DNA of 64,000 nt, from NCBI GenBank assembly GCA_903913865.1, contig CAIWMU010000213.1, positions 26,854 to 90,853 on the forward strand, written 5' to 3'. Both the position numbers and the translations under genes were made by a program. The DNA comes from an uncultured Verrucomicrobia subdivision 3 bacterium. GTDB taxonomy: Bacteria > Verrucomicrobiota > Verrucomicrobiia > Limisphaerales > UBA8199. This document shows positions 2,751 to 40,552 of the stretch, one piece after another (the first letter of the stretch is position 1; each line of letters begins with the position of its first letter). A model generated the notes under the pieces. The model had not been told where the DNA came from, ran no database searches, and was given only the letters and a program-made list of their open reading frames with translations.

Positions 2751-3983
2751 CTATCGCTGTGAGGGAGGGGTGAAGGTGCCCTCCCAGCGGGCCATGACGG
2801 CGGAGGCCAGGCAGTTGCCGACGAGGTTCACAGTTGTTCGCCCCATGTCCAGGAAGGCATCCACTCCAAGGATGACTGCGATACCCTCGAGAGGGAGGCC
2901 AAAGCTTGTGAGAGTGCCGGAAAGAATGACGAGGGATGCCCGGGGAACAGCTGCGACTCCCTTGCTTGTCAGCATGAGGGTGAGGACAATGGGCAGTTGC
3001 TGGGCCAGAGTGAGTTCAATCCCGGCTGCCTGGGCAACGAAAACGGATGCCAGAGCGAGATAGAGTGTTGATCCATCGAGGTTGAAGGCGTAACCGGCCG
3101 GTAGGACAAACGAGACGATCCGGCGGGGCACACCAAACTGCTCCATCAACCGGAATGCATCCGGCAGGGCGGCCTCGGAAGAGGCCGTGGAGAAAGCAAG
3201 CAGGGCAGGCTGGCGCACAGCACGGAAAAATCCGGCGACCGGGATGCGTGCCAGCAGCATCACGGGGATGAACACCAACACCACCAGGGCGAACAGGGCG
3301 CCGTAGAGAGTTAGAACGAGTTTCCCGAGGCTTAGGAGGATTCCGAGCCCGTTTTTCGCCACAGTCAGCGCCACTGCGCCGCCGACACCCACCGGGGCGA
3401 ATTTCATCACCAGGTTTGTGAATTTGAACATCACCTCCGAAAGTCCCTCGCAAAAACCCAGAATGGTCCGGCGGTTTGTCGGGCCGGTCTGGGCAAGGGC
3501 AACCCCGAACAGGATCGAGAACATGACCACCTGGAGGACGTCGTTCCGGGCGGCGGCATCGAAAAAGCTTTGGGGCATCAGGTGCTCCATCACCCCCTGG
3601 AAAGTGACCTTCGTGTCGGCCAGTTCACGGCCGGTTGCGCTGGTATTTGGCAGTTGGACACCATCACCGGGCCGCACCAGATTGACGGCACCCAACCCGA
3701 CGAACAGGGCCAGGGTGGTGACGATTTCGAAATAAATGAGAGACTTGAAGGCCAGTCTTCCCACGGACTTGATATCGTCCGCATGACTGGCGATGCCCAC
3801 CACCAGGGTGCTGAAAATGAGGGGCACCACGATGCACTTGACCAGACGGATGAACAGGTTGGAGAGCACACCACCGTGCAGGGCGATCTCCGGGAAGCGC
3901 CAGCCGCAGAAAATTCCCAGAGCCATGGAAATGAGAATCCACTGGCTCAGGCTTAAACGTCGGATGGCTGCAATCATGGGCAT
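2751..3983 (-). CDS. Dicarboxylate/amino acid:cation symporter (DAACS family, GltP/DctA-like).
   Basis: It is polytopic and has family-typical segments: PLIFSTLVVGIA, FFDAAARNDVLQVVMFSILFG, SSEAALP, GYAFNLDGSTLY and VLTLMLTSKGVAAVPRASLV. I place the start at the ATG-CCC-ATG at 3983 (MPMIAAIRRLSLSQWILISMALG), which matches GltP-like N-termini. The 116 extra upstream codons in the ORF track look non-coding. Confidence 0.85.
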   Translation of the reverse strand: MPMIAAIRRLSLSQWILISMALGIFCGWRFPEIALHGGVLSNLFIRLVKCIVVPLIFSTLVVGIASHADDIKSVGRLAFKSLIYFEIVTTLALFVGLGAVNLVRPGDGVQLPNTSATGRELADTKVTFQGVMEHLMPQSFFDAAARNDVLQVVMFSILFGVALAQTGPTNRRTILGFCEGLSEVMFKFTNLVMKFAPVGVGGAVALTVAKNGLGILLSLGKLVLTLYGALFALVVLVFIPVMLLARIPVAGFFRAVRQPALLAFSTASSEAALPDAFRLMEQFGVPRRIVSFVLPAGYAFNLDGSTLYLALASVFVAQAAGIELTLAQQLPIVLTLMLTSKGVAAVPRASLVILSGTLTSFGLPLEGIAVILGVDAFLDMGRTTVNLVGNCLASAVMARWEGTFTPPSQR

Positions 3984-4521
3984 CTGCCATGGATATTGCC
4001 CCGCAGATGTGTCCTGGGGCAAGCATACTCGCTGCAGGGGGGCATTAAAAGTTAGCATGGGCCCGGTGCGGCTCGAAGGGGAACCGCGAATGGATGTGGG
4101 TGGGTGGGAGGCACTCGTGTAGAGGCGTTGACCAATTTCCCGCGAGGGGGCACTGTTGAATCCGGCTGGGGCCGGTCTCAACAGAAGAGAACTGACCCCA
4201 TCGCCCCGGGGGAGGGGTTGTCCGCAGATGGGGTAGGCGGGCGATGGGTGGAGGGGTGGCTGGCATCCCGCTGGGATGCGTGGACAATTGGGGTCTATAC
4301 CGGTGGTGTCGTCGCGTTGCTCCTCAACCACCGGCTAACATCTGGGAACCCTTCGGGTTCAGGGGGCGGGCGGCGGCGACGTTGCGATTATTGGTGGGTG
4401 AACCAATGGCGTCCGGTTTTCTGGTTTGCTGAGGTGGCGGTATTCGCGGACCGGGGGGCGATGCCTTTGCTTGATCCGGCCTTACAAATAAAGGAAGCTG
4501 GGACCTTTGAAACCTGAACAA

Positions 4522-5655
4522 ATGAGCAACACGTTTGAAGTTATTTCCCTGTCCCGCAGCAGCCGGGATATTGACCGGTTCATGAAGGTTAGCTACGGCA
4601 TTTATGCCGGGGACCCCTACTGGGTGGCCCCCCTGCTGATGGATTTGAAAAAGGTTTTTCTGGATTCAAACCCGCTGTTCGAGCATGCGCGGATGCAACT
4701 GTGGGTGCTCCGGAAGGATGGTCGGGATGTGGGGCGGATCGCCGGGCTCTTCGACGATTTCCACAATCAATCCCGGCCGGACAAGACGGTATTCTTCGGC
4801 TTTTTCGAGTGTGTGGATGACATAAATGCCGCCCGCACCCTTTTTGATGCCGTTTCTGCATGGGGTCGGCAGCTGGGTGCGGCAAAGATGCTCGGGCCGA
4901 TGAATCCCACCACGAACGACGAGTGCGGACTTCTTGTGAAGGGGTTTGATTCCATGCCGGTGTTCATGATGCCCTACAACCCGTCCTATTATGTCGGGTT
5001 GATGGAAGGTTTGGGGTTCGTGAAGGCGAAGGACCTGCTCGCGTTCCACTTGAATCTGGATGTGGTGCCCCTGGCCCGCCTTTCGCGAATTGCCCAGAAG
5101 GTTCAACAGCGGCATCCCGAGGTCCTGTTTCGGGCTGTGAAGAAGAAGGAGTTGGACCAGGTGCTGGAGCGGATCAAGCAGGTTTACAACGATGCGTGGG
5201 AGGAGAACTGGGGGTTTGTGCCCATGACGGTGAAAGAGATGGATTTCATGGCGGAGCGGTTGAAGCCGATGATGGTGGAGGGGTTGCTCTGGCTGGCGGA
5301 GGTGGGTCCAAAAACCGTTGGTTTTCTCCTGACTCTGCCGGATTACAACCCGGTGATGCAACCGCTCAAGGGCAAACTCCTGACGCCTGCCATTTTCGGA
5401 TTCCTGCCCTACATGTTGCACTGGAAGAAGTTGCCGCGTGCGAGGGTGTTGACCCTGGGCATCACGAAGGAATACCGGAACAAGGGTCTGGAGTCGGCCA
5501 TGCTGATCGAGGGCATGAAGGTTGCCGTTGCCTCCGGTCTGCGCGAGGCTGAAGCCTCATGGATTTTGGAGGACAACCACCGGATGACCCGTGTGATGGA
5601 GGCCATCGGCGGCAATCCCTACAAGGTTTACCGGCTCTACGATCGGGCGGTCTGA
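4522..5655 (+). CDS. Large (about 377 aa) GNAT-fold acyltransferase-like protein. It is a candidate bacterial ceramide synthase (bCerS-type), but that assignment is unproven.
   Basis: Segments seen include DPYWVAPLLMDLKKVF..NPLFEHA, GRIAGLFDDFHN, FFGFFECVDD, GPMNPTTNDECGLLVKGFD, MPYNPSYY, and a C-terminal GNAT core ITKEYRNKGLESAMLIEG. The ATG at 4522 is preferred over the TTG at 4507. Confidence 0.7.
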   Translation: MSNTFEVISLSRSSRDIDRFMKVSYGIYAGDPYWVAPLLMDLKKVFLDSNPLFEHARMQLWVLRKDGRDVGRIAGLFDDFHNQSRPDKTVFFGFFECVDDINAARTLFDAVSAWGRQLGAAKMLGPMNPTTNDECGLLVKGFDSMPVFMMPYNPSYYVGLMEGLGFVKAKDLLAFHLNLDVVPLARLSRIAQKVQQRHPEVLFRAVKKKELDQVLERIKQVYNDAWEENWGFVPMTVKEMDFMAERLKPMMVEGLLWLAEVGPKTVGFLLTLPDYNPVMQPLKGKLLTPAIFGFLPYMLHWKKLPRARVLTLGITKEYRNKGLESAMLIEGMKVAVASGLREAEASWILEDNHRMTRVMEAIGGNPYKVYRLYDRAV

Positions 5656-6662
5656 TCCCGGTCAGCAGCACCCGAGGGTGGTTGCACTTCATTCTCACGG
5701 GGCCCGATGGAACTGAAATAAAGTTTGTTCGCGAGCGGGATCAGGAGAGCCGCGGTGAGCAATCCTGCGACAACATCCAGAATGTAGTGGTAGCGGCAGT
5801 AAACCGTGGAAATCGTGAGAAGAACCGCCACGAACGCATGCGCGTAGCGGATGCGCGGGATGTAGCGAAAGGAGAAATAGACGGTGGTCCACGCGATTGC
5901 GACATGGCTGCTGGGAAAGGCGGCCCCCGGACCATCCACCATCCGGTAAAGCCAGGCAATGATCTGATGGAACGGCCCCTGCCTGAGCGCTTCCGGAATC
6001 AGATGCTGTCCATAGGCCTGAAACTCAGGTGGCAGAACCTGTCGCTCGAAAGGATTGAAAAAAAGCGGCGGGCCGACGATCGGGAAAAAGACATAGAGCA
6101 GGTAGCAAATGTAGAAAACGAAGGAGACGACCGAGACATAGTGAAAGAAGGAGTCCCGGCTGCGGTAGAGCAGGTAGATTCCCACTCCTCCGATCGTCAG
6201 ATAGTAGGAGAAGTAGCTCGCGTAAAGAATCTCGCTCAGGAGCAGGTTGGGAAATTTTTCCATCAAAACCACCGACGGCTGGCAGCCGAAGATCTGGTTT
6301 TCGAGCCGTATGAACGGCTCATCAATATAATTGAGGAAGAACATCCGGTTGATCCATCCCGTTTCGGCGAAGAACCAGATGAACAGGAGGACCGGATAAA
6401 AGTGGCGGAGGAATCCGAGAATCGGGTTGCTCCAGCGGGCATTCGAAAGGATCAGTGCGTGGATGCCGAGGCCCAGGGCGACGTGGATTGCGATCAGCCT
6501 TGCCCAGCCGGGAACTGTGTGGTTGTGAAAGCAGAGCAGCAGCAGGGCCACGATGAGGCTGTATCCCTGAGTCGCGTAATCGACGAAGGTGTAGTGGCGG
6601 GAGAAGCTAGATCCACCCATGCTTTTCATACCAGATGATGGTTTCACGAATGCCATCCTCAA
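5637..6662 (-). CDS. PAP2-superfamily integral membrane protein, PAP2_3 / AUR1-like (inositol-phosphorylceramide or sphingomyelin synthase-like).
   Basis: It has multiple TM helices. The phosphatase-family motifs are AFPSSHVAIAW (the PSxH motif) and CRYHYILDVVAGLL (the HxxxD motif). The start is ambiguous (Met at 6662, 6656, 6629 or 6620), and every option overlaps the end of the upstream gene. Confidence 0.75.
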   Translation of the reverse strand: MRMAFVKPSSGMKSMGGSSFSRHYTFVDYATQGYSLIVALLLLCFHNHTVPGWARLIAIHVALGLGIHALILSNARWSNPILGFLRHFYPVLLFIWFFAETGWINRMFFLNYIDEPFIRLENQIFGCQPSVVLMEKFPNLLLSEILYASYFSYYLTIGGVGIYLLYRSRDSFFHYVSVVSFVFYICYLLYVFFPIVGPPLFFNPFERQVLPPEFQAYGQHLIPEALRQGPFHQIIAWLYRMVDGPGAAFPSSHVAIAWTTVYFSFRYIPRIRYAHAFVAVLLTISTVYCRYHYILDVVAGLLTAALLIPLANKLYFSSIGPRENEVQPPSGAADRDQTARS

Positions 6663-7584
6663 GCCGGGTCCGGCAGCCGATTCCCAGGTCGGCAGTCAGC
6701 TGTGCCGGGTCACAGACCCAGCCGGGTGCCTGCAATTCCGGGAATTTGGCCAGGCTCAGGATGTCCGGGGTGCCGGTGATGGCTGTTTGGATTGATTTCA
6801 GCAGGCAGATGGGCCAGAAAGCGAGGGTTGGGAGGGGCAGGGGAATGGTCCAGACCTTCATCTCTGCGGCGATCATACCCGCCAGTTTGCGGCTGGAGAC
6901 AATCTCACTGCCTGCTGCAAAGTAGGTTTTTCCAACTGCAGCGGGGTGGTTCAATGAATGAACTGCCGCCTCGGCGAGATCCTTGACGTGAACCAGTGAC
7001 AGTTGCTGTGAATCGCTTGGGCAGGGACGCAAGTGCTTCCGGACCGATGCGAACAGGGGGAGGAATCCCCGGTCCCGGGGCCCGTAAACAGCGGGAGGCC
7101 GGATGATGGTGAATGGGGAACGGCAAAGGGTGCGAACTTCCTCCTCCGCAGCGAGCTTGCTGCGGCCGTAGTGGGAGACCGGGGACGGGGGATCTGATTC
7201 CCGGGCGGGCTTCTGCGGCGTGCCGGGCCCTGCCGCCGCAAGGCTGGAAATCAGCAGAAACCGGGCAATGTTCCCCTGCGCATTGGCAGCCTGGACGAGA
7301 TGGCGCGTGACCATCTGGTTGATGGTGTAAAAGTCCTTAACCTTTCGCGCCTTGGTGGCTCCCGCGCAATGGATGACATGCGTCACCCCTTTCAGGAGTG
7401 AGGGGAGGGTATCCGGGTCGGAAATGCTGCCTTCCCGCACCTCCATCAGAGGGTTGGTCGCATCCAGAAAGCTACGGTCACTATTGCGTCGTAACGGGGC
7501 GACTACCTGGATGCCCCTGCTGCAGAGACTGTCCAGAATATGGCTCCCAACGAATCCGCTGGCTCCTGTCAGCAGGACTTTCAA
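6607..7584 (-). CDS. NAD(P)-dependent epimerase/dehydratase-family SDR (CerR-like reductase candidate).
   Basis: The N-terminal Rossmann motif is KVLLTGASGFVGSHI. An extended-SDR YxxxK-type segment is HYGRSKLAAE. The TTG start at 7584 directly abuts the TGA of the upstream gene at 7585-7587. Confidence 0.8.
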   Translation of the reverse strand: MKVLLTGASGFVGSHILDSLCSRGIQVVAPLRRNSDRSFLDATNPLMEVREGSISDPDTLPSLLKGVTHVIHCAGATKARKVKDFYTINQMVTRHLVQAANAQGNIARFLLISSLAAAGPGTPQKPARESDPPSPVSHYGRSKLAAEEEVRTLCRSPFTIIRPPAVYGPRDRGFLPLFASVRKHLRPCPSDSQQLSLVHVKDLAEAAVHSLNHPAAVGKTYFAAGSEIVSSRKLAGMIAAEMKVWTIPLPLPTLAFWPICLLKSIQTAITGTPDILSLAKFPELQAPGWVCDPAQLTADLGIGCRTRLEDGIRETIIWYEKHGWI

Positions 7585-8889
7585 TCAGATCAACCCCAGC
7601 TCTTTTCCAACTGCACCGAGCTTTTCGAGTGCAAAGTCGATCTGCTTGTCCGTGTGCGTGGCCATGAGGCTGATGCGGATCAATTCCTCGCCCGGAAGAA
7701 CTCCCGGGGAGACGACTGGATTGACGAACACGCCCTCCTCCTGGAGTCTCTTGCAGTAGTTGAACGCCTTCATGACGTCCCGGCAGAAGAGGGGCAGGAT
7801 GGGGGTCTCGGAATGTCCCAGATCAAACCCAAGGCTCAGGAGGCCCTGCTTCATGCGCTCGGTGTTTGCCCAGAGGCGGGCAATCCGCTCCGGTTGGTCA
7901 ACCATGATCTCGATCGCCGCCAGCACGGCTGCGGCATTCGAGGGACTCATGCTGGCGCTGAAAATCAGGCTCCGGGAATGGTGCTTCAGGTAGTCAATCG
8001 TCTCCGCATCGGAGGCGATGAACCCGCCCAGACTGGCGAGGGATTTGCTGAAAGTCCCCATGATCAGGTGGACTTCGTCATCCAGACCAAAATGGCTGGC
8101 CGTTCCGGCCCCGTTCCTGCCCAGCACACCAATCGAGTGGGCATCATCCACCATGACGGCGGCCCCGTGCTTTTTCGCGATGGCGCACAATTCAGGGAGT
8201 TGGATGATGTCCCCCTCCATGCTGAACACTCCATCGACCACAATCAGTTTGCCCGCATCGGGCCGGATCTGGCGCAACCGATCCTCCAGAGCCCCCATGT
8301 CCTTGTGGGAAAATCGGTGGAATCTCGCGGGACTTGCCTGGCAGCCCTCCACGATGCTGGCGTGGTTGCTCTTGTCCCCAAGAATGAAATCCCCTCTTCC
8401 GGCCAGGGCGCTGATAACGCCCAGATTCACCTGGAAACCGGTGCTGTAAAGGAGGACTGCTTCCTTTTTCACAAGGCGGGCAAGGGCCTGCTCCAATTCA
8501 ATGTGAATGTCGAGCGTCCCATTCAGAAAGCGGGAACCGGCACAGCCTGTGCCATACTTGTCCACAGCCGCCTTTGCGGCTTCTTTGATTTTGGGATGGT
8601 TCGTCAGGCCCAGATAGCTGTTCGAGCCGAGCATGAGCACCGGCTTTCCGTCAATCATCACCTCCGTATCCTGCGCGGATGTGATCACCCGGAAATAGGG
8701 ATACACTCCCAGACCGCGAAGCTGGTTCGCGGTGGTGAAATCCTGCATCTTGTCAAAAATGAAGGGCCTGGTCCTGATCCGCCCCGACCCGTTGGCGGAT
8801 GGCGCGACGGTGCTCTTCTGCGGAGAACGGGTAGGGCAAGCCTCTTCCCGCTTCGTTTCAAGAGCTGACGTCGATTCGTTATAAATCAT
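7585..8889 (-). CDS. PLP-dependent alpha-oxoamine synthase, serine palmitoyltransferase-like (alternatively BioF/KBL-like).
   Basis: Segments seen: [55 protein letters not shown], and the PLP-lysine motif [13 protein letters not shown]. By eye it aligns along its length with the Sphingomonas SPT sequence I recall. Confidence 0.8.
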
Positions 8890-9130
8890 AGTTTTGAAAG
8901 CCGTAGAGCGACCTTATCCGCTCCCTTTTACGCCGAATCACGCGCCATGCAAGGCAGAAATTCCCCTCACAAGGTTGTCAAAAGTGTGTTTTACCGTGTA
9001 AAAAGGCTCTTCCGAAGTGTTTTTGAAAATCCGCTGTGCGGTGATGTGCAAGAGGTTGCAACGGATGAAGGCCGGGGTCTGCAAACAGATCACCCCCATC
9101 TCCGCTCCGCCAACAAAGCCCTCCGGTTTG

Positions 9131-9754
9131 CTACAGGGGCTTGCCCATGTAAACGCATCCGTCGCGGCCTTCGCCAACGCGGATCAGTTCCTTAAAGCCG
9201 AGCTTAAGATAAAATCCCATCGCCGGGGTGTTCATCATGCTGACGCCGAGGTGTGCTCCCGGGGCACCCTGCTTCTTGAGTTCTGCCATCACCTGATCCA
9301 GCATCTGGCGCCCGAAGCCATGGCCCTGTGCCCGTGGAAGCAGATCGATGTGCAGGTGGGAGGGGTAGGCGCTGTAGGGTTCGGGGCAAAAATAGTCGGG
9401 ATGGTGGTAAACAAAGTAAATCTGCTCGGCGCGGGTCCACTTTTCCGGGTCGCCTTTTGGTTCGGGATACTTGCTGCAGAGGGTGGGTCGCCATTCCTTC
9501 TCATACCGGTCGTAGAACTGGTGGGAGTCCAGAGCGCCAAGGGCGTAGCCGCAGATCCCCTGATCATCCTCGAGGATGAGTCCAAACTCAGGGGCATAGG
9601 AGAGATAGGGCCCGACGAAGACCCGTCCGAGCGCATCGGGATCCTCCCGGTAGAACGGTTCACCATCGCGGCCGAAATCGCCGGTTTTCAGGCAGACGTG
9701 GTAGGCACCTGCTTCATCGCCGGGGCGGACACCCCGGATCTTAAAATTGCTCAT
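9131..9754 (-). CDS. Stand-alone GNAT acetyltransferase homologous to the C-terminal HAT-like domain of eukaryotic O-GlcNAcase.
   Basis: LILEDDQGICGYALGALD matches human OGA FVLEDEDGICGYALGTVD. FKIRGVRPGDEAGAYHVC matches YSIRPYFPKDEASVYKIC. GFYLKLGFKEL matches EFYSKLGCFEI. It retains the acetyl-CoA motif RAQGHGFG. The start is 5 nt after the GH84 stop. Confidence 0.8.
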   Translation of the reverse strand: MSNFKIRGVRPGDEAGAYHVCLKTGDFGRDGEPFYREDPDALGRVFVGPYLSYAPEFGLILEDDQGICGYALGALDSHQFYDRYEKEWRPTLCSKYPEPKGDPEKWTRAEQIYFVYHHPDYFCPEPYSAYPSHLHIDLLPRAQGHGFGRQMLDQVMAELKKQGAPGAHLGVSMMNTPAMGFYLKLGFKELIRVGEGRDGCVYMGKPL

Positions 9755-9759
9755 GTTAT

Positions 9760-11163
9760 TTATGCCGGGTTGGTTTCCGGCGTTGATCTTTTCGTCTCGA
9801 GTGACTGTGCGACAGTAAAGGCACCATCCGCTTCCTGCACCAGAAATTTTTGCAGATCTGCCACAAAGCTTCCGCGGTAGGTATGGGGGAGGTGAAAGTC
9901 TGCCCTAAACGGTGTGTGCCGGATTGCCGGGTTGGCCCGGTGCTCGATGCAGCGCTGCAACAGGTCGATCTCCTCGCGCAGTTCCCACACCCGTCGGTGG
10001 ATGGCGTTGAAGAGGGGGCGGTTTATCAGTTCCGCCATCCGCGCACAGCAGGATCGGAGGCGCTCGGAGCGTTCGCGGAATTGTGCGAGGATGTCCGGCA
10101 TGGCCAGGGGATCGCCCTGCAAAAGTTTGCGGGTCAGGTCGAACAGGATTTCCGCCTCCGGCCCGCTTTCGTAGGGCAGGTAATGGCAATCCCCGAACAG
10201 GACGAGATCCTCATAGGAGATCGGGGCACCGGCCGTTAGAAACTGGGAGTGCCATTCCCGCATGGCTTCCAAATAGGCCTGGCGCGGATTCCAGTCAGGA
10301 GACCCGTGCAGGAACTTCCCCAGGGTGAGCCATGGGACAAAATTCACCGGGAACTCGCAATTGGGGTTGCAGAGCAACCCGGCGAGTTCCTGCCGCAGTT
10401 CGGGCGGGCGTCCGGAGTAAGGGCCGCAGTAGAAACGGCGGCCATCGTAATCGTTGGCATGCAGGTTCTCCCAGACCACCGGCTTCCGCCGCAGGAGGCT
10501 TGCCAGATCGCGGGTTTCCTGGACGGTGATTTCCTCTGGAATGATTTCGGACCCGGTCCAGAAGACGTCGATTTCCGGCAGCAATTCCTGACCCAGAATG
10601 GCGAGGTAGTTCTTCCCCCCATGCTCGCGCATGGCCATCCGCCCGCAGTAGGGGGTGGGGCAGAAAAGAAATCGCGAGGAGGGTTCCTGCTGGCGTATCC
10701 AGCGGAATATGGCGTTGGTGGTGGATGCCTGCGCGGCTGCCAGGGATGTCCATCGTTTTGAGTCCTCCGGGTGCATCTGGTCCGGGATGTCGTCGAAAAG
10801 CAGACAGAAATGTTTGGCTCCCAGCGAAAGAACCTGGGCGAGCTTGCCCTGTAGCGCTTCATGGTCGGATGTCGAGGAGTAGGTGATGTCCAGCCCGGGG
10901 CTGAGTGCATAGAGAAACTCGAGCCCATGCTCCGATGCCGCGCGAATGAGGGTCTGGAGGTCGGCCGCCTCCGTTTGTGTGTATTGTTGCCGCCACTGTG
11001 CCCGGTGCTTCAGATCGTCCTTGGGCGCATACATGTAGGTGTTGAACCCGCATCGGCGCATCCAGTCAAAGAGGGTCATCCGTTCAACGGAACTCCAAGG
11101 CGGGCCGTAAAATCCCTCAATCACACCGGTCAGGAATGTTGCTTCGTTGCTCACGTTTTGCAT
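9760..11163 (-). CDS. GH84 beta-N-acetylglucosaminidase of the O-GlcNAcase (OGA) type, with catalytic and helical stalk regions and no signal peptide.
   Basis: Motifs seen: [29 protein letters not shown], the catalytic Asp-Asp pair in [53 protein letters not shown] and LLCNPNCEF. All are co-linear with the human OGA motifs I recall. Confidence 0.9.
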   Translation of the reverse strand: [467 protein letters not shown]

Positions 11164-11202
11164 GGCGGTTTTCAGGAAGATGAGACCTGACCCTATTCGG
11201 CT

Positions 11203-13566
11203 CTAGTTGCTCTTTTTCGGGGTGACTTCGAGAGTTTCCCCGTTGATGCGGAGGTGCAGCGGCTTGGGTGAGGGGGAGCGCAGTTTGTAATTCGTCACGC
11301 GTCCGTTCGCCCATTCGATGTCCACAGTGATACCGCCCCGGGCTTTAAGACCCGTCACCTTGCCTTGTGCCCACGATTTGGGAAGGGCGGGCAGGAGGGC
11401 GATTTCATCCTGATGACTCTGAAGCAGCATCTCGGCGATGCCCGATGCGGCGCCAAAATTGCCATCGATCTGGAAGGGGGGGTGGGCATCAAACAGATTG
11501 GGATACATACCACCGCCCTGATTTCCCTTGCGGTTAATCGGTGCCAGGAGGTTTTTCAAGATCAGCAGGGCATGGTCTCCTTCAAGGAACCGGGCCCAAA
11601 GGTTGACCTTCCACCCCATGCTCCAGCCGGTGGCGGCATCCCCCCGGTAGATGAGAGACTGGCGGGCGGCTGCGAACAGTTCCGGCTCGCGCGGAGTGAT
11701 TTCAGAGCCGGGATAGACGGCCCACAAGTGTGAAACATGCCGGTGGGTGTTTTTGGGATCATCCTTGTCCTCCACCCATTCCTGAAGCTGGCCATGGCGG
11801 CCGACCTTGTTTGGAGCGATCTGCTGGCGGAGTGCATCCAGGCTGTCGGCGAAGGCCTGATCCTTCCCGAGAAGACGGGCCGCCCGTGCCGTGTTTTCAA
11901 ACAGGGTCCGGGTGATCTGATGGTCCATGGCGGGTCCCATCACAAGACCGCCCTGCTCGGGGGAGTTGGAGGGACCGCTGATCATTTTTCCGGTGATGGG
12001 ATCACGCACGAGATAATCGACAAAAAAGAGGGCGGCATCCTTCATCAGGGGATAGGCCCGCTGCTCCAGAAAATCGCGGTCCCCGGTGAACAGGAAATGC
12101 TCCCACAGATGCTGGCAGAGCCAGGAACCGCCACTGGGCCAGATACCGTGGTCACTGCCATTGATCGGGGCAGTTCCCCTCCAGACATCGGTATTGTGGT
12201 GGAGGACCCATCCCCTCGCGCCGTAGTGTGCCTTTGCGGTTTTGCGCCCAGTGATGGCGCAGTCACCCAGCATGTCGAAGAGGGGTTCCGCACATTCGGA
12301 GAGATTGCCCACTTCGGCGGGCCAATAGTTCATCTCGGTATTGATGTTGACCGTCATCTTGCTGTCCCAGGGGGGGCTTTTGGAATCGTTCCAGATCCCC
12401 TGCAGGTTCGCGGGCTGTCCGCCGGGGCGACTGCATGCGATCAGGAGGTATCGGCCGTATTGGAATGTGAGTGTGACGAGCCCGGGATCGTTCCCCGTGG
12501 CGAATTGTTCGAGGCGCTGGTCGGTCGGGAGGTCGGCCGTGGCCGAGTGACCCAGATCCAGTGCGACGCGGTGGAACAGTTTCTGGTGGTCCGCCACATG
12601 GGTTTTGAGCAAGCGGGCATAATCTTTGCCTGCGACAGAGGCAAGCATTGAAGCTGCCCGCTCCTCCGGGTTGGCGCTGATATCCCGGAAGTTTTTGTAA
12701 CTGCTGGCTCCGGCCAGGACGAGAGTGGCGGAGTCCGCATGCTCCACGAGGATAGAACTGTCGTTGAGCGTTAGCGTTCCCCCCTTGGTGGAGGCTTTCA
12801 GGCGGGCTTCAAACCGGACTCCACCCTCCTCGACCTGTCCGAACAGGGCCAGCTGATCACCCGGACGCCGTGTGGTTTGGACCTGCTGATGGGCACTGTC
12901 GAGCCGGGCGGCAAAGCTGATGCTGCCGGGCTTGTCGGCAGTGATGCGCAGGACGATCACCCGGTCCGGAAAGCTGGCAAAGGCCTCGCGGGTGTAGTGA
13001 ACCCCTCCGGATTCGTAGGAAACGCGGGACACCGCCATATCCAGATCCAGTTCGCGCCGGTAGGAGGTGAAATTGGTCTGGCCGGGAAAACTGATCCGGA
13101 GATCGCCGAACGGTTGGTAGGCTCGTTGGGTGAGGGGGACGCTCATGAACTCCTGCATGCCGAGCTGGTGCGCTTTTTTTTGTTTTGTTCCGGCTGCCTG
13201 GCGCCGGGATTTTGCATCCTCCTGTTTGCCGGCCTTTTCGAGTTCGTCCGCCTCGATTTCCAACCGCCTGCATTCGTTCAGCAGGTCGCGCAACTCGGGA
13301 AGGAACCTGACAGCCCCCTCATGTTGATATTCATGCGGTTTGCCGTTCCAGATGGTGCTCTCATTGAATTGAAGGTGCTCCTCCTGGACGCCCCCAAAAA
13401 CCATGGCTCCCATACGGCCGTTGCCGATGGGCAGGGCCTCCACCCATTGGCGGGCCGGTTTGTCATACCACAACTTCAGGGCATCGGCGCACAGCCCCGG
13501 GAGGGTTGTCCCGAGAGCGAGACCAACCGGTATCAGAAACAGCAATCTGCGTAGTGTTTTTTGCAT
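11203..13566 (-). CDS. Exported GH95-family glycoside hydrolase (alpha-L-fucosidase-like).
   Basis: The GH95 N-terminal signature is LWYDKPARQWVEALPIGNGRMGAMVFGG..LQFNESTIWNG. I place the start at the ATG at 13566, which gives the signal peptide MQKTLRRLLFLIPVGLALG. The longer ORF-track N-terminus is rejected. Confidence 0.85.
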   Translation of the reverse strand: MQKTLRRLLFLIPVGLALGTTLPGLCADALKLWYDKPARQWVEALPIGNGRMGAMVFGGVQEEHLQFNESTIWNGKPHEYQHEGAVRFLPELRDLLNECRRLEIEADELEKAGKQEDAKSRRQAAGTKQKKAHQLGMQEFMSVPLTQRAYQPFGDLRISFPGQTNFTSYRRELDLDMAVSRVSYESGGVHYTREAFASFPDRVIVLRITADKPGSISFAARLDSAHQQVQTTRRPGDQLALFGQVEEGGVRFEARLKASTKGGTLTLNDSSILVEHADSATLVLAGASSYKNFRDISANPEERAASMLASVAGKDYARLLKTHVADHQKLFHRVALDLGHSATADLPTDQRLEQFATGNDPGLVTLTFQYGRYLLIACSRPGGQPANLQGIWNDSKSPPWDSKMTVNINTEMNYWPAEVGNLSECAEPLFDMLGDCAITGRKTAKAHYGARGWVLHHNTDVWRGTAPINGSDHGIWPSGGSWLCQHLWEHFLFTGDRDFLEQRAYPLMKDAALFFVDYLVRDPITGKMISGPSNSPEQGGLVMGPAMDHQITRTLFENTARAARLLGKDQAFADSLDALRQQIAPNKVGRHGQLQEWVEDKDDPKNTHRHVSHLWAVYPGSEITPREPELFAAARQSLIYRGDAATGWSMGWKVNLWARFLEGDHALLILKNLLAPINRKGNQGGGMYPNLFDAHPPFQIDGNFGAASGIAEMLLQSHQDEIALLPALPKSWAQGKVTGLKARGGITVDIEWANGRVTNYKLRSPSPKPLHLRINGETLEVTPKKSN

Positions 13567-13676
13567 ACGGATTCTGGCTCCATCATAAGGAGAGGCGTGG
13601 CAGATGAACAGCACTGAGTGTCTCCGGGAGGCAACAAGACTTGAACCCCGGGATGCCATCTGTGAACAATGGGGGC

Positions 13677-19048: not shown

Positions 19049-19087
19049 CAGGAGCAGCTCCATTGGGGTTGCTCCTGTTTGTGTTTT
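19049..19087 (+). terminator. Rho-independent terminator after rpmB. Its T-tract overlaps the stop codon of the convergent ATPase gene.
   Basis: caggagcag / 11-nt loop / ttgctcctg forms a 9-bp stem including one G-U pair, followed by tttgtgtttt. Confidence 0.7.
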
Positions 19088-20825
19088 AGGAAGTTGCAAC
19101 CGGGGTGATGATCCGTGTCCAGCGTTCCTGCTCCTGAATGGGGATCAAGCCCTCCTGGACCTTGGACCAGCCCACCTCGCGAAGGGACCGCCAGCCAACT
19201 TTCCGCGCGGCATTCCGAAGATCCCCGGTGCGCAGACTGGGTTGGATGAGGTCGGCAATGTCCTGGTTGAGCAGGAAGAATTCATATAGAGCAACCCGCC
19301 CGCGTTGGCCTTTCTGGCCACATTCCACACAACCAGCACCCCGGTAGGCGCGAACCTCCGACGGGGCCACGTGCAAGGAGGCGGCCATTTCATTCCGGAT
19401 TCCATCAGGAATCTCCGTGTCCGGGGTGACGCAGTGGCGGCAGATGCGCCGGGCCAGGCGCTGGGAAATAGAACAGACCAGAGAGGATGCGATGAGGTAG
19501 GGTTCGATGCGCATCTCCATGAGGCGGGTGATGGCGCTGACGCTGTCGTTGGTGTGAAGGGTTGAAAGCACAAGGTGCCCCGTCTGTGCGGCGCGCACGG
19601 CAATCTCAGCCGTCTCAAAATCGCGTATTTCCCCCACCAGAACGACATCCGGATCGTGGCGGAGGACAGAACGCAACCCGGCGGCGAATGTGAGGCCGAT
19701 CTGCTCCCTGACTTGGATCTGGACCACCCCGTCCAACTGGTATTCTATCGGATCTTCAAACGTGATGATCTTGCGGCCTTCATCATTGGCCTGTGCGAGG
19801 GCGGTATAGAGGGTGGTTGTCTTCCCGCTGCCCGTTGGGCCGGTGAGAAGGACCAGTCCCTGCGGCAGTTGCGTGAGTTGCGCAAAGACAGCCTCCTGGT
19901 TCGGATCCATGCCAAGCTGGCCAAGATCGAGAAAAAGGCTTTGCCTTCCCAGGATGCGCAGGCAGATCCCCTCGCCGTGTCTTGTTGGAACAATCGAAAC
20001 GCGGAGGTCGTATTCCTCCTCACCGGTTTTCATGGCGATCCGCCCGTCATGCGGCAGCCGCTTTTCGGCGATGTTCAACCCTGCCATGATTTTCAACCGT
20101 GACACGACAGCGTTATGGAGGTGTCGCATGTCCGGCGGAACTGGAACCGTTTCGAGAATGCCGTCCACCCGGTAACGGAGGCGTATGGAATTGGCGTAGG
20201 GTTCCAGATGGACATCCGTGGCGCGGAGCCGGAGCGCTTCCTGCAGGATCTGGTCCACGAAGGCCCCGACGGTGGCCTCCACCATGGAATCGGTCTCCTT
20301 GCCCTGGACATCAAAGACAATTTCCTGACTGATTTCCGTCCCACCCCTTTCCTCGCGCAGCCGTTCGATGGTTTCAGCACCGAGGCCGAAATTCTTCTTG
20401 ATGACCGCATGGATGGAGCTTGGGGTTGAAAGCACCTCCCGAAAGCGTTTGTTCAGGAGCAGGCGCAGGTTCCCGAGATCCATCTGCCGGGGCGGTTCGC
20501 TAAAAGCGAGGACGATGCAGTCCCCCTCAATACCCACCGGGAGCATCCGATAGTGGAAGATGAACCTTATCGGGATGAGATCAAGAGTCTCCCTCTTCAG
20601 CTCCAGAGCCATCGGGTCCACGAACTCAAGATTCCGGGCGGCTGCAAGCGCCTTCCACGTTTCCTCCTCGGAAGCAAAGTTCAGATCTACAATGGCCTTG
20701 TGCTGGGGAAGGTTCAGGCGCTTTTGCCGACGCCGCACCTGCTCCAATTGCGACTGAGTCATCCGCCCCTGTTCGGCAAGCAGATCTCCCGCTTCACGTT
20801 CCTGTGTTGGCGCGTCGGGACTCAT
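19086..20825 (-). CDS. GspE/PilB-family secretion ATPase (T2SS / type IV pilus assembly ATPase).
   Basis: It has an N-terminal T2SSE_N-like domain, the Walker A motif LLTGPTGSGKTTTLY, the Asp box VLVGEIRD, the His box LVLSTLHTND, and the tetracysteine cluster CRHC...CVECG. Confidence 0.9.
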   Translation of the reverse strand: MSPDAPTQEREAGDLLAEQGRMTQSQLEQVRRRQKRLNLPQHKAIVDLNFASEEETWKALAAARNLEFVDPMALELKRETLDLIPIRFIFHYRMLPVGIEGDCIVLAFSEPPRQMDLGNLRLLLNKRFREVLSTPSSIHAVIKKNFGLGAETIERLREERGGTEISQEIVFDVQGKETDSMVEATVGAFVDQILQEALRLRATDVHLEPYANSIRLRYRVDGILETVPVPPDMRHLHNAVVSRLKIMAGLNIAEKRLPHDGRIAMKTGEEEYDLRVSIVPTRHGEGICLRILGRQSLFLDLGQLGMDPNQEAVFAQLTQLPQGLVLLTGPTGSGKTTTLYTALAQANDEGRKIITFEDPIEYQLDGVVQIQVREQIGLTFAAGLRSVLRHDPDVVLVGEIRDFETAEIAVRAAQTGHLVLSTLHTNDSVSAITRLMEMRIEPYLIASSLVCSISQRLARRICRHCVTPDTEIPDGIRNEMAASLHVAPSEVRAYRGAGCVECGQKGQRGRVALYEFFLLNQDIADLIQPSLRTGDLRNAARKVGWRSLREVGWSKVQEGLIPIQEQERWTRIITPVATS

Positions 20826-21352
20826 TTCAACGGAACTTCGACGATGGTCTTCACGTTCATCGGCAGAAGGTTGGTCAGTCCCGCGTGGTTCGTCAACACG
20901 AGGGCCTGCATATTGGCAGCGGAGATTGAAAGGTTGGTGACGAGTTGCGATCCAACCGGTATCTCAACCAGCGTATCGATCATACGCACTATGACCCTTG
21001 TCGAGGAACCAGTGGTCTTGTAATAACCAAGGTAGGTGATCTCGATTTTTCGGGTTGTGGGTGGAGGGGGGGGGCCGGGGGCCGGGGCGGGGACAAAATA
21101 ACGAGTGTAAAAAGGGCTCGTGGCATCCTGTTTGGTGATTTTTACCTGCACCATCTGGGTAGAGTAGAGATCCGCCAGATTTGTGACGGGTGGCAGGACT
21201 TGCGGCTGACCACGGAGGACATCCGTGTCATGAAAATAGGGGGTGGTGCCGTGAAAGCTGGTCAGACCGAAGATAAGAAGCATCCACAGGGCAACGTGAA
21301 CCGCCATGGACAGCGATCGGCTCTTCAACAAGGAATGGAGCAGTCCGGTCAT
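20822..21352 (-). CDS. Small bitopic protein of the secretin operon (PilP-like by position and architecture).
   Basis: It has an N-terminal TM helix, a poly-Pro linker (PAPAPGPPPPPTT) and a C-terminal beta-rich domain. An ATGA overlap couples it to the ATPase gene. The PilP-like assignment is architectural only. Confidence 0.55.
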   Translation of the reverse strand: MTGLLHSLLKSRSLSMAVHVALWMLLIFGLTSFHGTTPYFHDTDVLRGQPQVLPPVTNLADLYSTQMVQVKITKQDATSPFYTRYFVPAPAPGPPPPPTTRKIEITYLGYYKTTGSSTRVIVRMIDTLVEIPVGSQLVTNLSISAANMQALVLTNHAGLTNLLPMNVKTIVEVPLK

Positions 21353-21356
21353 GGGG

Positions 21357-22175
21357 TTACTCGCGATAAACGAAACCTAAAACGCGCAGGGACACGCGGA
21401 CTTCGTCCGTCTTATCAGGTGACTGCCGCTTGATGATGAGCCTGTCCACGAAGAGTGGTGGCTTTGTCGGGGCATTTGTGGGGAAGCCCTGCGCAGTAAT
21501 TTCCTCCGTGCGCAGGGGGAGGCTTTGGATGAAATCGATCGCATTGGCGATCGGGGATGTGAATTCGAATTGGATCGGAACCTCGCTCAGGTCGCCAGCA
21601 ACGCCAACGACCGGGGAGTTGGTCGGGGAGACATCGACTTCAAGCGAGTGCATGATCGGGATCTGATGAAACAGAGCGGATTTGACCATTCCCTCCACCA
21701 TGGCGAGTTCAGCCCAGAGGAGGTGTTGGTAAACGATGTCGGCGGTGTGCTGCGGGAACCCCGCATAAACGGCAGGCTCGACCGTGATCTTGCTGCGGGT
21801 GGCCTGTGCAGCCAGATCATCGAGCTGCTTGCTGCGTTCGTTTTCGTAATCGACCAACTGAAAGGGGGCCGATGTGCGGATCCGGACTGAAGGGGGCATC
21901 TCGACCCGGGCGAGGGCCTTCTTTCGTGCGGCATCCAGACGGGAGATGGCGGTGCGGGTGTCCTGAAGTTGATTCGTCAGAACCGTGAAGTTGAGGGCGA
22001 AGGCGTTGGTTTGCTCCAGAGATAGGGCGAGCTTTTCCCAAGCCTGCTTGAGGGGGGCATCGAGGCTCTCCGCCCGTCGTTTGATGGGAAGAAACACGAA
22101 CGCGTAATAGGCTGCGAGGACCAACCCTGTCAGGGGTAGGATTGCGCGCCGTTTATATGCATTGAGGGATGCCAT
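21357..22175 (-). CDS. Bitopic coiled-coil protein of the secretin operon (PilO/GspM-like by architecture).
   Basis: I place the start at the ATG at 22175 (MASLNAYKRRAILPLTGLVLAAYYAFVFL), 4 nt after the upstream stop. The order is TM helix, coiled coil, then an alpha/beta C-terminal domain. Confidence 0.55.
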   Translation of the reverse strand: MASLNAYKRRAILPLTGLVLAAYYAFVFLPIKRRAESLDAPLKQAWEKLALSLEQTNAFALNFTVLTNQLQDTRTAISRLDAARKKALARVEMPPSVRIRTSAPFQLVDYENERSKQLDDLAAQATRSKITVEPAVYAGFPQHTADIVYQHLLWAELAMVEGMVKSALFHQIPIMHSLEVDVSPTNSPVVGVAGDLSEVPIQFEFTSPIANAIDFIQSLPLRTEEITAQGFPTNAPTKPPLFVDRLIIKRQSPDKTDEVRVSLRVLGFVYRE

Positions 22176-22179
22176 GCGT

Positions 22180-39167: not shown

Positions 39168-40337
39168 CTATTTTCCGTAGAACTGTTCAACCACCTCGCG
39201 GAAGGTGTTTTCGCCGACGTTCACAATTCCCATTTCCCGAGCCGCATTTTCGGGAGAATCGCTGGCGTGTGCTGCGTTGATCATCACCGTCTGGCCAAAC
39301 TCGCGGCGGATGGAACCCGGGGGTGCCTTTGAAGGATCTGTCGGTCCGAGGACGTCCCGGATCTTCCGGACAGCCTCCACACCCTCGTAAACGAGAGCAA
39401 TGCACTTCTCCGAGCCCGGCTGGTTGATCTCGCCAAGGGGCGTCTCCGACGGGGCACGTCCGGACATGAATTTCACGATGTTCTCAAACTGGTTGTCCGC
39501 GAACACGGGGCCGAGACTTTCCCCCAACTGCGACTCAATCTGTGGGGAAACCTTGATCCCCAGTTCCTTTTCCAAGGCCAGTTTGGCCTTCCCGGCGACC
39601 ATGTCCTTCAGCTTGATGCGCAGCACTTCCCGCACGGGGCCATAAAATTCAAGGGCCTGTGCCACGCTCATGCGGTGCAATTTGACTGCGACGATATACA
39701 GGCCGGTCCGGGAAAAGAAATCGATCATGTTGCCCGGGCGTCCTGTCGGGAACCGGAAGTTCTCCGGCTTGATCAACACAAGGGTTCTCTGGGGAGGTGC
39801 CTCGGGGGCATAGGTCAGAACGTTTTCCAGAACACCACCATCGGCGTCGGAATAACTGGCCCACAAGCGGAGTTTGGAGGCGGCCTCTTCCGCAGTGGGA
39901 GCGGCCAGAACGGCTGGTTCGAAGTATTTCACCTCATCGCTCTCGTCGGTGATGAGATCCCCGTAGGTGTCCCGGATGGTCTCACCTCCACGGCGGTCAG
40001 TGGTGATATTCCCGATTACGGAACGGGTCTTCCTCACAGCGTCCTCTCCCTGGAAGAGCATCATCATCACCCGGCGCCGACGTCCTGTTTTGGGATCGGG
40101 GCTGAGGTTTTTGATGATGTAATTGTAAATAAGCTCCTGAATACGACGATCCTGGGGGTCGTTGGCTGAAATGGTCTCTTCCGCATATTTTTGAATCAGC
40201 TCGGCGCTGGGGGAGAACATGCGGGCACCAACCAATTCAAGACCGGTGCGGGTAATCAGACGGCTCAGAATGCCTCCCGTGCGGGACTTATGCAGGGAGT
40301 AGGGGGTGATGATGACGTAAGCGAGTTGTTGGGACAT
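39168..40337 (-). CDS. Tandem nucleoside-diphosphate-kinase-fold protein. The N-terminal copy is degenerate. The C-terminal copy keeps the catalytic His.
   Basis: Domain 2 has RTLVLIKPE.., GPTDPSKAPPGSIRREFG and NAAHASDSPENAAREM (the NxxHxSDS active-site motif). Domain 1 has AYVIITPYS.. and GETIRDTYG, but has EPAVLAAPT where the His motif should be. Confidence 0.75.
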   Translation of the reverse strand: MSQQLAYVIITPYSLHKSRTGGILSRLITRTGLELVGARMFSPSAELIQKYAEETISANDPQDRRIQELIYNYIIKNLSPDPKTGRRRRVMMMLFQGEDAVRKTRSVIGNITTDRRGGETIRDTYGDLITDESDEVKYFEPAVLAAPTAEEAASKLRLWASYSDADGGVLENVLTYAPEAPPQRTLVLIKPENFRFPTGRPGNMIDFFSRTGLYIVAVKLHRMSVAQALEFYGPVREVLRIKLKDMVAGKAKLALEKELGIKVSPQIESQLGESLGPVFADNQFENIVKFMSGRAPSETPLGEINQPGSEKCIALVYEGVEAVRKIRDVLGPTDPSKAPPGSIRREFGQTVMINAAHASDSPENAAREMGIVNVGENTFREVVEQFYGK

Positions 40338-40342
40338 AGTTA

Positions 40343-40552
40343 TCAGGATTTCGTGGGGGGGGTGGTGGAATCCGTCACGGCGGATTCCTGCGCTGCAGCA
40401 GCACTGGCTTTACCACCCAAAATTTTAAACATGACTGTTCCGCAGGTTGGGCACTTGCCTTTTATGGCTTTGCGCCCGTTCTTCATCGTTTCCTCAACAG
40501 CATCGATGATTTCCTTTTTTGCTTTGCATTTGACGCAATATCCTTCGGGCAT
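40343..40552 (-). CDS. Small zinc-ribbon protein (DUF5679-like).
   Basis: MPEGYCVKCKAKKEI...GKCPTCGTVMFKILG has a CxxC...CxxC pattern. I place the start at the ATG at 40552. Its stop is 5 nt before the NDK-like start. Confidence 0.6.
   Translation of the reverse strand: MPEGYCVKCKAKKEIIDAVEETMKNGRKAIKGKCPTCGTVMFKILGGKASAAAAQESAVTDSTTPPTKS

Follow-up and report, generated by a model that had tools for sequence, protein, structure and literature searches.

The 64-kb stretch of DNA analyzed here (the window), from an uncultured Verrucomicrobia subdivision 3 bacterium, contains a two-gene, translationally close-coupled module in which the gene for an OGA-type GH84 glycoside hydrolase is followed by the gene for a GNAT acetyltransferase. 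The locus adds a member from Verrucomicrobiota to the OgOGA-OgpAT operon type. Neither the arrangement nor its likeness to human OGA (hOGA) is new, as Rao et al. (2013; PMC3814719) had reported an operon of Oceanicola granulosus in which GH84 is likewise followed by GNAT and had pointed out the parallel with the hOGA domain order. Taken alone, the window locus is therefore of modest interest, being one more example of an arrangement known since 2013. The comparative picture is more useful, as it bears on the acceptor of the GNAT family and on the reason for the dead acetyltransferase domain of OGA: the pair is widespread, co-inherited, repeatedly fused with an intact acetyl-CoA site and found in two unrelated transporter contexts. 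It yields a concrete hypothesis, namely that by N-acetylating glucosamine (GlcN) or glucosaminides the GNAT supplies substrate to a hexosaminidase with a substrate-assisted mechanism.

The two genes close a three-gene block that is headed by a GH95 gene (Table 1). An earlier reading of this DNA, made from its letters without database searches (the sequence-only reading), had given the coordinates, strand and lengths of the GH84 and GNAT open reading frames (ORFs) and spacings of 5 nt and 39 nt, all of which stand. The GH84/GNAT gene boundary coincides with the boundary between the stalk and the pseudo-HAT (pHAT) domain of hOGA (hOGA residue 715 is the counterpart of GNAT residue 4), and the gene order thus reproduces the eukaryotic domain order, as that reading had proposed. 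The exact GNAT protein was found again on several environmental contigs with an identical layout, and the locus is therefore no assembly artifact. The closest relatives in the databases carry the name Verrucomicrobia, and among species-level genomes 'Verrucomicrobia subdivision 3 bacterium UBA693' stands nearest. A scan of the locus, uninformative for this phylum, found no sigma-70-like promoter, and an equally uninformative scan found no minus-strand terminator-like site inside the GH95-GH84-GNAT block, 39-nt spacer included. Rfam and tRNA scans placed no element near the locus.

The GH84 protein belongs to the OGA-type subgroup and is predicted to be a cytoplasmic beta-N-acetylglucosaminidase. 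It matched the Pfam family NAGidase (PF07555) over amino acids 13 to 305 (E = 3e-81; 273 bits versus a cutoff of 25). The top PDB matches in HMMER searches were hOGA constructs (4e-95 to 1e-89), and OgOGA (2xsa) was matched over its full length (residues 11 to 448; 1.5e-88). Matches to BT_4395 of Bacteroides thetaiotaomicron and NagJ of Clostridium perfringens reached only approximately 1e-38 to 1e-33, and the score against the NCBIfam equivalog of the NagJ type (155 bits) fell below its cutoff of 1000. The protein thus groups with OGA (approximately 1e-90) and not with the secreted NagJ type. The latter enzymes share the GH84 catalytic fold and the Asp-Asp mechanism, but they are far more distant, exported and multimodular, with N-terminal and carbohydrate-binding or cohesin-type modules. 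Identity to the hOGA catalytic domain was 44.8% over 308 amino acids, and identity to OgOGA was 37.9% over 448 residues.

Residues G17, Y19, K48, D124 and D125 of the window enzyme align with hOGA G67, Y69, K98, D174 and D175, and Y172, W231, N233, D238, Y239 and N268 align with hOGA Y219, W278, N280, D285, Y286 and N313, all within gap-free alignment blocks. The stalk (amino acids 310 to 442) matched the hOGA stalk as a second HMMER stretch, and isolated stalk chains were also matched (5uhk_B and 11lj_C; 3e-05). The disordered insert of the eukaryotic enzymes, approximately 170 residues long (hOGA approximately 367 to 535), is not present in the alignment of the window GH84 to hOGA. Export signals were judged by the hydropathy of the N-termini only. 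By this measure the GH84 N-terminus is not hydrophobic (maximum 15-amino-acid hydropathy, 0.71), and beta1 of the TIM barrel begins at residue 13; the GNAT N-terminus is likewise not hydrophobic.

The GNAT is a member of the OgpAT/SsAT/OGA-pHAT subfamily and, judging by its conserved residues, of its competent branch, with predicted use of acetyl-CoA. It exceeded the cutoff of Pfam Acetyltransf_1 (39.3 versus 20.7 bits) and passed the Pfam GNAT models solely over the C-terminal motif A. Its top PDB matches were OgpAT (3zj0; 1.4e-45), SsAT (4bmh; 5e-39) and hOGA residues 715 to 913 (3e-26), while generic GNATs in the same search reached just approximately 1e-3. The P-loop RAQGHGFG aligns with RAQGRGVG in OgpAT and with KVTDPSVA in hOGA. 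All of the acetyl-CoA-contacting and proposed catalytic residues of OgpAT (His135, Ile136, Asp137, the P-loop at 143 to 148, Asn175 and Tyr182) are found in the window GNAT, and the acetyl-CoA-contacting Thr of OgpAT position 25 is likewise kept.

According to PMC3814719, the subfamily is marked by a long alpha1-alpha2 loop and by the extra helices alpha3 and alpha4, which form an acceptor tunnel. An AlphaFold model of the window GNAT (pLDDT 94.1, pTM 0.90) has an alpha1-alpha2 loop at residues 24 to 40 and two helices (77 to 95 and 108 to 117) between beta3 (66 to 74) and beta4 (132 to 138), and the subfamily-defining features are therefore present. Foldseek aligned the model to 3zj0 with a TM score of 0.92, to 4bmh with 0.86 and to the Trichoplax pHAT 6r45 with 0.88; the next-best GNATs scored 0.6 or less. 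SsAT of Streptomyces sviceus, whose structure was solved by He et al. (2014; PMC3919268), is 37 to 38% identical to the window GNAT in alignments (35% in the Foldseek alignment). It represents a stand-alone branch of the family, for which PMC3919268 reports no GH84 neighbor.

All of the bacterial motifs that the sequence-only reading quoted are in the translations, and all of their human counterparts appear in the HMMER alignments to hOGA. Its description of the GH84 as human-OGA-like, of the GNAT as the counterpart of the C-terminal pHAT with a retained Q/RxxGxG/A acetyl-CoA motif, and of a signal peptide on the GH95 protein and on neither of the other two agrees with the profile searches, the alignments and the hydropathy data, with the one change that the GH95 start probably moves to Met32 (see below). 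It had also stated that isolated bacterial homologues of the HAT-like domain had been crystallized and bind acetyl-CoA. Indeed, OgpAT was crystallized with acetyl-CoA bound, its dissociation constant was reported as 8.7 or 8.3 μM, and swapping the human P-loop into it abolished acetyl-CoA binding (PMC3814719). A 2025 study found that none of the tested eukaryotic pHATs bound acetyl-CoA, while the O. granulosus protein did (PMC12494797).

The closest described system is thus the OgOGA-OgpAT pair. The two loci agree in both families, gene order, strand and tight coupling, in a GH84 with a stalk and without a signal peptide, and in a GNAT that has alpha3/alpha4, the long alpha1-alpha2 loop and an intact P-loop, His135, Asp137 and Asn175. 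They differ in phylum, the window being of Verrucomicrobiota, and sequence identity is 38% for the GH84 and 44% for the GNAT. In addition, an ABC sugar importer and a NagK-like kinase flank the pair in O. granulosus, whereas the window pair lies behind an exported GH95 protein.

In a pattern scan with one genome per species, relatives of the GNAT were detected in at least 553 genomes. Synteny was assessed in the best-scoring 80 of these at least 553 loci (46 to 84% GNAT identity), i.e., among nearer relatives from Verrucomicrobiota, Acidobacteriota, Planctomycetota and Deinococcota, with gene calls derived from tblastn and ORF logic. The upstream sequence was long enough for judgment in 79 loci, and in 60 of them an OGA-type GH84 gene lay directly upstream of the GNAT gene on the same strand; such adjacent pairs were found across Verrucomicrobiota, Acidobacteriota and Planctomycetota. 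At most of these junctions the GH84 stop and the GNAT start overlapped by 4 nt. In O. granulosus and one further alphaproteobacterium the two genes are neighbors as well; two other alphaproteobacterial relatives have the GNAT alone. Divergence from the window copies was correlated between GNAT and GH84 (r = 0.89; 53 adjacent pairs), as expected for a pair inherited as a unit. The HxH[IV]D motif was kept in 80/80 GNATs and the P-loop consensus in 78/80; the catalytic His, P-loop and Asn were conserved in 78 to 80 of the 80 loci, and the Asp-Asp pair was kept in 49/53 GH84 proteins.

Furthermore, the two domains occur as natural fusions. A single fused ORF was present in loci L065 (Luteitalea) and L067 (Planctomycetaceae), with both domains confirmed by Pfam. 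Among 150 GH84 representatives (clusters at 50% identity), 41 carried an OGA-type GNAT domain. Approximately 11 of these had an intact P-loop, most of them 590 to 725 amino acids long and two much longer, and the full H-x-H-I-D ... RAQGxGxG ... N signature was present in 9; the longer, eukaryote-type representatives had degenerate P-loops. The fusions of L065, L067 and the P0125 cluster keep HLHIDLL...RAQGxGxG...N. This cluster has 171 metagenomic members of approximately 680 amino acids, which carry the IMG label 'protein O-GlcNAcase/histone acetyltransferase'. One fusion is named Luteitalea sp. HTV00244.1 (668 amino acids), and the bacterial fusion P0122 shares 52% identity with the window GH84. 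The fusions thus share both domains and the intact P-loop with the window pair and differ in having a linker of approximately 15 to 20 residues and, downstream, an EIIC gene and a gene for a secreted protein of no known family. Among the papers searched, none was found that describes bacterial GH84-GNAT fusions or the extended operon (see below). Overall, synteny, fusions and correlated divergence support a joint function of GH84 and GNAT, which the sequence-only reading had suggested from their spacing. Three outcomes that this reading had named as fatal to its claim, namely a GNAT that groups with generic families, a GH84 that groups with NagJ-type enzymes and a lack of synteny in related genomes, were not observed.

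The genes that travel with the pair in relatives point to sugar uptake. Of 60 loci whose downstream sequence was long enough for judgment, 44 have a stand-alone phosphotransferase system (PTS) EIIC gene after the GNAT gene, and in 26 a DegT/DnrJ/EryC1 aminotransferase gene lies between the two. The EIIC partner, with or without DegT, occurs in Verrucomicrobiota, Acidobacteriota and Planctomycetota. It belongs to the cellobiose/chitobiose family, passes the TIGR00410 cutoff (lactose/cellobiose family) and has a sole solved relative (3qnq; 2e-62). The DegT protein scored below all equivalog cutoffs, its closest matches being 3-amino-5-hydroxybenzoate (AHBA) synthase (5e-72) and 2-deoxy-scyllo-inosose aminotransferases. 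GNAT-EIIC units without an adjacent GH84 also exist: in three Verrucomicrobia loci (L003, L006 and L010) they follow directly after nusB, indicating that the GNAT-permease pairing can stand alone. A substitute glycosidase was sought upstream of the GNATs that lack a GH84, and none was found; the upstream genes encode NusB, FG-GAP, enolase-like and other proteins.

The EIIC gene is often followed by a gene for a secreted protein of approximately 550 amino acids. These proteins form two unrelated families (types A and B; Table 1) without a Pfam domain, and downstream of the fused genes of approximately 680 amino acids the EIIC is followed by the second of them. Type A had no Pfam or NCBIfam match, and its sole PDB match covered a short segment similar to the periplasmic domain found in hybrid two-component sensors. 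Type B has more than 3,400 homologues, every one labeled hypothetical, and its AlphaFold model was poor (pLDDT 54.8).

A different set of genes surrounds the pair in the two alphaproteobacteria, where genes for a sugar-binding protein and then two permeases precede GH84 and GNAT and a BadF/BadG kinase gene follows. The importer is of the binding-protein-dependent CUT1 ABC type. The kinase is closest to N-acetylglucosamine (GlcNAc) kinases, with an NCBIfam NagK score well below the cutoff. Genes for a GntR/UTRA regulator, an ABC ATPase and an SIS-domain protein related to SCO4393 diverge from this operon. SCO4393 is the GlcNAc-6-phosphate dehydratase NagS, and verified NagS activity is restricted to Streptomycetaceae in the source paper; the kinship of the SIS protein to NagS is only a hint of amino-sugar metabolism. 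Two unrelated importer types have thus been recruited beside the same GH84-GNAT pair.

This gene context (importers, kinase and aminotransferase) is the reason to favor salvage over a GlcNAc-modified protein as the target, and of the substrates that the sequence-only reading had offered, the GlcN/GlcNAc salvage intermediate therefore gains and the modified protein loses ground. The reading preferred here, to which we assign about an even chance, is that the pair constitutes a cytoplasmic amino-sugar salvage module acting on small glycosides rather than on O-GlcNAc proteins. A beta-linked oligosaccharide containing GlcNAc or GlcN would be imported, and the GNAT would use acetyl-CoA to N-acetylate glucosamine. 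Its target might be a GlcN residue at the nonreducing end, in which case it would supply the 2-acetamido group for the substrate-assisted mechanism of the GH84, or it might be free GlcN released after cleavage. The GH84 would free GlcNAc for phosphorylation and catabolism or for cell wall reuse. The O. granulosus order GH84, GNAT and NagK-like kinase would also fit cleavage, N-acetylation of the GlcN so released and phosphorylation, in this sequence.

The catalytic mechanism gives the two activities a reason to be coupled. GH84 catalysis is substrate-assisted via the 2-acetamido group. The nucleophile is this group of the substrate itself (see also PMC10636738). A terminal nonacetylated glucosamine would accordingly resist cleavage by GH84; handling of GlcN-containing oligosaccharides would therefore need an acetyl-CoA-dependent GNAT coupled or fused to the hexosaminidase. 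A demonstrated case is RmNag of Rhizomucor miehei, in which a GH3 beta-N-acetylglucosaminidase is fused to a glucosamine N-acetyltransferase GNAT that acetylates GlcN and (GlcN)2-5, an activity that the N-acetylglucosaminidase needs for cleavage of (GlcN)2 (PMC4680927). RmNag resembles the window pair in coupling a beta-N-acetylglucosaminidase to an acetyl-CoA-dependent GNAT and differs in its hydrolase family (GH3, not GH84) and in that its activity is demonstrated, whereas that of the window pair is inferred. If the proposal is true, it would add a new route for partially deacetylated chitin/chitosan-type oligosaccharides in phyla abundant in soil and freshwater.

Several observations weigh against salvage. 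The mechanism is drawn from gene context and analogy and not from a demonstrated acceptor of a member of the GNAT subfamily. The analogy itself is limited, as the window GNAT is related to the GNAT region of RmNag at the superfamily level only (the RmNag structure 4zm6 was absent from its PDB sequence matches at E ≤ 0.01), so that a shared function would be convergent. In the window and in its closest relative, locus L001, no importer, kinase or DegT gene lies beside the pair, and an exported GH95 is its sole partner; EIIC- or DegT-type genes were found nowhere in the 64-kb window, and no ABC importer or sugar kinase gene was found near the pair. The GNAT occurs without an adjacent GH84 in some genomes (L082, L084 and L078 to L080), and the synteny fractions hold for the nearer relatives (the best 80 of at least 553 loci). 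Salvage also leaves the role of DegT and the secreted proteins of approximately 550 amino acids unexplained. Finally, OgOGA has been reported to remove O-GlcNAc from proteins in vitro and to have a conserved peptide-binding groove in common with hOGA (PMC2973230; PMC3814719).

The last of these points speaks for a bacterial protein O-GlcNAc system, in which the GH84 would remove GlcNAc from cytoplasmic proteins and the GNAT would acetylate the same or associated proteins at lysines or the N-terminus, mirroring the role once proposed for bifunctional eukaryotic OGA. The 45% identity to the hOGA catalytic domain, the conservation of sugar-binding and catalytic residues and of the stalk, and the cytoplasmic location of both proteins suggested by hydropathy are all in line with such a system. 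After the OGA-type GNATs, the structural neighbors of the GNAT model include the N-terminal acetyltransferases Ard1, RimI and Naa20, although many small-molecule N-acetyltransferases stand in the same list. However, the 64-kb window codes for neither a GT41 O-GlcNAc transferase (OGT) nor a tetratricopeptide repeat (TPR) protein, and the operon partners across three phyla and the alphaproteobacteria are importers, a GlcNAc-kinase-like enzyme, an aminotransferase and a GntR/UTRA regulator, with no signaling proteins among them. A protein-directed system is therefore considered unlikely.

Recycling of the cell wall would account for a window pair that has no dedicated importer. In this scenario the GH84 would act like NagZ on GlcNAc-(anhydro)MurNAc (N-acetylmuramic acid) muropeptides, and the GNAT would re-acetylate de-N-acetylated GlcN of peptidoglycan fragments for cleavage and reuse. 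The glucosamine/glucosaminide N-acetyltransferase gene of Clostridium acetobutylicum presumably lies in an operon with a MurNAc/GlcNAc kinase gene, and a BadF/BadG-type kinase gene follows directly after the GNAT gene in O. granulosus. The C. acetobutylicum enzyme, cited in PMC4680927, offers a precedent for the acetylation step. Against this, no MurQ etherase, AmpG-type permease, amidase or L,D-carboxypeptidase gene was found beside the pair in the examined loci, and the CUT1 ABC and cellobiose/chitobiose-family EIIC importers are typical of exogenous disaccharide uptake. Recycling is rated slightly less probable again than the action on proteins.

The lacZYA operon combines a glycosidase, a permease and an acetyltransferase (LacA), a set that resembles GH84, EIIC and GNAT. 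By this parallel, the GNAT would carry out a side reaction or detoxifying acetylation of nonmetabolizable glycosides or of an amine-bearing aglycone released by the GH84. The closest solved relatives of DegT act on keto-cyclitols and keto-sugars and may hint at an unusual aminated aglycone, and the GNAT-EIIC units without an adjacent GH84 would also fit. The repeated fusion of GNAT and GH84 and their near-universal translational coupling point instead to consecutive steps on one substrate, as such fusion would be surprising for an optional safety valve, and the fold of LacA differs, which leaves an analogy only. A LacA-like role is judged improbable, and marginally the least probable of these three alternatives to amino-sugar salvage.

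The relation to eukaryotic OGA bears on how its domain architecture arose. Human and Trichoplax OGA share with the window proteins all active-site residues, a homologous stalk and a pHAT domain homologous to the GNAT (33.5% identity). They differ in being one polypeptide rather than two, in their disordered insert and in pHATs that do not bind acetyl-CoA, where the window GNAT retains the residues of the site; the window encodes no OGT partner, and the gene context of the window pair's relatives is one of sugar uptake and catabolism. If salvage applies, the pHAT of eukaryotic OGA may be the degenerate relic of an amino-sugar acetyltransferase. Tentatively, and with a likelihood clearly below even, we suggest that OgpAT and the OGA pHATs constitute a family of amino-sugar (glucosamine or glucosaminide) N-acetyltransferases that serve oligosaccharide salvage in the bacterial cytoplasm together with OGA-type GH84 enzymes, to which bacteria repeatedly fused them, and that the animal pHAT may be the inactivated remnant of such a bifunctional bacterial sugar enzyme and not of a histone acetyltransferase. 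The bacterial fusions with intact sites provide a natural example of a fused, active intermediate. If the GNAT does acetylate amino sugars as proposed, the origin of the OGA domain architecture would appear in a new light.

The sequence-only reading had left two origins side by side, an unfused ancestral state of OGA or a split acquisition. A neighbor-joining (NJ) tree of 131 GH84 catalytic domains (200 bootstraps) was indecisive between them. The eukaryote-type OGAs formed one group (33% support), and the window GH84 lay within the bacterial radiation in a group (44%) that also held P0122, with split and fused forms interleaved. The backbone was supported by less than 5%, and the tree was rejected as a guide to the direction between bacteria and eukaryotes because bootstrap support was too low. 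An unresolved backbone is compatible with horizontal acquisition and later splitting of a eukaryotic OGA gene, as is the fact that the window GH84 is nearer to hOGA (45%) than to OgOGA (38%), with eukaryotic OGAs appearing from rank 10 on among the 50%-identity representatives. The GNAT argues against such an acquisition. While the bacterial GNATs keep His, P-loop and Asn (78 to 80 of 80 loci), in every eukaryote-type representative examined either the P-loop is degenerate or the catalytic His is missing, and as tested eukaryotic pHATs do not bind acetyl-CoA (PMC12494797), regain of the lost site is unlikely. The bacterial proteins also lack the eukaryotic disordered insert. A recent eukaryote-to-bacterium transfer with splitting is thus disfavored, because catalytic motifs are intact and because relatives, set within typical bacterial operons, are spread over several phyla and at least 553 species-level genomes; we regard it as very improbable.

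The choanoflagellate OGA-like protein P0148 (Choanoeca perplexa, EukProt, 670 amino acids) is short and bacterial-like in its architecture. It keeps the Asn and a P-loop that agrees with the consensus (RAQGNG), while the HxHxD catalytic strand is lost (HLYVCLL). Either an intermediate state or transcriptome contamination could account for this sequence.

Directly upstream of the pair, the GH95 protein (alpha-L-fucosidase family) matched Pfam Glyco_hydro_95_cat at 5e-177. Its longest ORF starts at 13659 and overlaps the start of a divergent sulfatase gene (13641). Translation probably begins instead at Met32 (13566), because the hydrophobic signal-like segment comes after this internal Met and the alignment with the L001 homologue sets in at residue 32. 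The sulfatase also has a signal-peptide-like segment. The GH95-GH84-GNAT trio is kept in L001 between entirely different flanking genes, and hence behaves as a unit in this lineage. As a conserved partner of the pair, GH95 was rejected since it is kept in L001, the closest relative, only, and the sulfatase since it is kept in no relative locus. The genes downstream of the pair, for serine palmitoyltransferase (SPT)-like, reductase-like and PAP2 proteins, were rejected as linked because they do not lie beside it in L001 or the other loci.

Table 1. Features of the GH84-GNAT locus, its surroundings in the window and selected relative loci
Feature	Position	Strand	Remarks
GH95	11203-13659	-	818-aa longest ORF; first gene of the three-gene block
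Spacer GH95/GH84	11164-11202	-	39 nt, direct sequence reading
Predicted OGA-type GH84 beta-N-acetylglucosaminidase	9760-11163	-	467 aa; TIM barrel and helical stalk
GH84 catalytic domain	10249-11127	-	aa 13-305; Pfam match and hOGA alignment
GH84 catalytic pair Asp124-Asp125	10789-10794	-	Alignment to hOGA D174/D175
GH84 stalk domain	9838-10236	-	aa 310-442; counterpart of hOGA ~535-704
Spacer GH84/GNAT	9755-9759	-	5 nt, ATAAC; junction TAA-ATAAC-ATG, direct reading
OgpAT/OGA-pHAT-type GNAT	9131-9754	-	207 aa; acetyl-CoA site residues intact
GNAT catalytic core	9311-9352	-	beta4 and P-loop
GNAT beta4 His135-Ile136-Asp137	9344-9352	-	Aligned with OgpAT
GNAT P-loop Gln143-Gly-His-Gly-Phe-Gly148	9311-9328	-	Aligned with OgpAT 143-148
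SPT-like protein	7585-8889	-	NCBIfam SerpalmtaseCFB, 606 bits, just below the cutoff of 640
NAD-dependent epimerase-family/short-chain reductase-like protein	6607-7584	-	
PAP2 protein	5637-6662	-	
Acyltransferase-like divergent GNAT	4507-5655	+	382 aa
T2SS/T4P-type ATPase	19086-20825	-	
Secretin	24051-26345	-	
Single-chain GH84-GNAT	L065 1778-3784; L067 1-2001; L086 8001-10043		~666-680 aa; intact acetyl-CoA P-loop
Secreted protein, type A	L023 13159-14772		End of GH84-GNAT-EIIC operon
Secreted protein, type B	L086 11323-12975; L008 3-917		End of GH84-GNAT-EIIC operon

Positions 39168-42277 of the window, approximately 30 kb from the pair, hold the genes of an AMP-binding enzyme and of a 389-aa protein that contains three nucleoside-diphosphate-kinase-like stretches. 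In L001 the same two genes lie directly upstream of GH95-GH84-GNAT (2841-5949), pointing to rearrangement around the three-gene block.

Between the GNAT gene and the SPT-like gene lies a 53-aa ORF (8938-9099, minus strand), which had no Pfam match and recurs as a gene call on several independent metagenome contigs in the same layout. The four genes at 4507-8889 form a set that resembles bacterial ceramide/sphingolipid synthesis. Secretion or pilus genes occupy 19086-26345 on the minus strand, and the two ORFs between the ATPase of the type II secretion system/type IV pilus (T2SS/T4P) kind and the secretin had no Pfam match. No tRNA gene was found in the 64 kb, and the sole Rfam match of the window was a 6S RNA (RF00013) at 47865-48046 on the plus strand, which scored 52.9 bits against a gathering score of 46.4.

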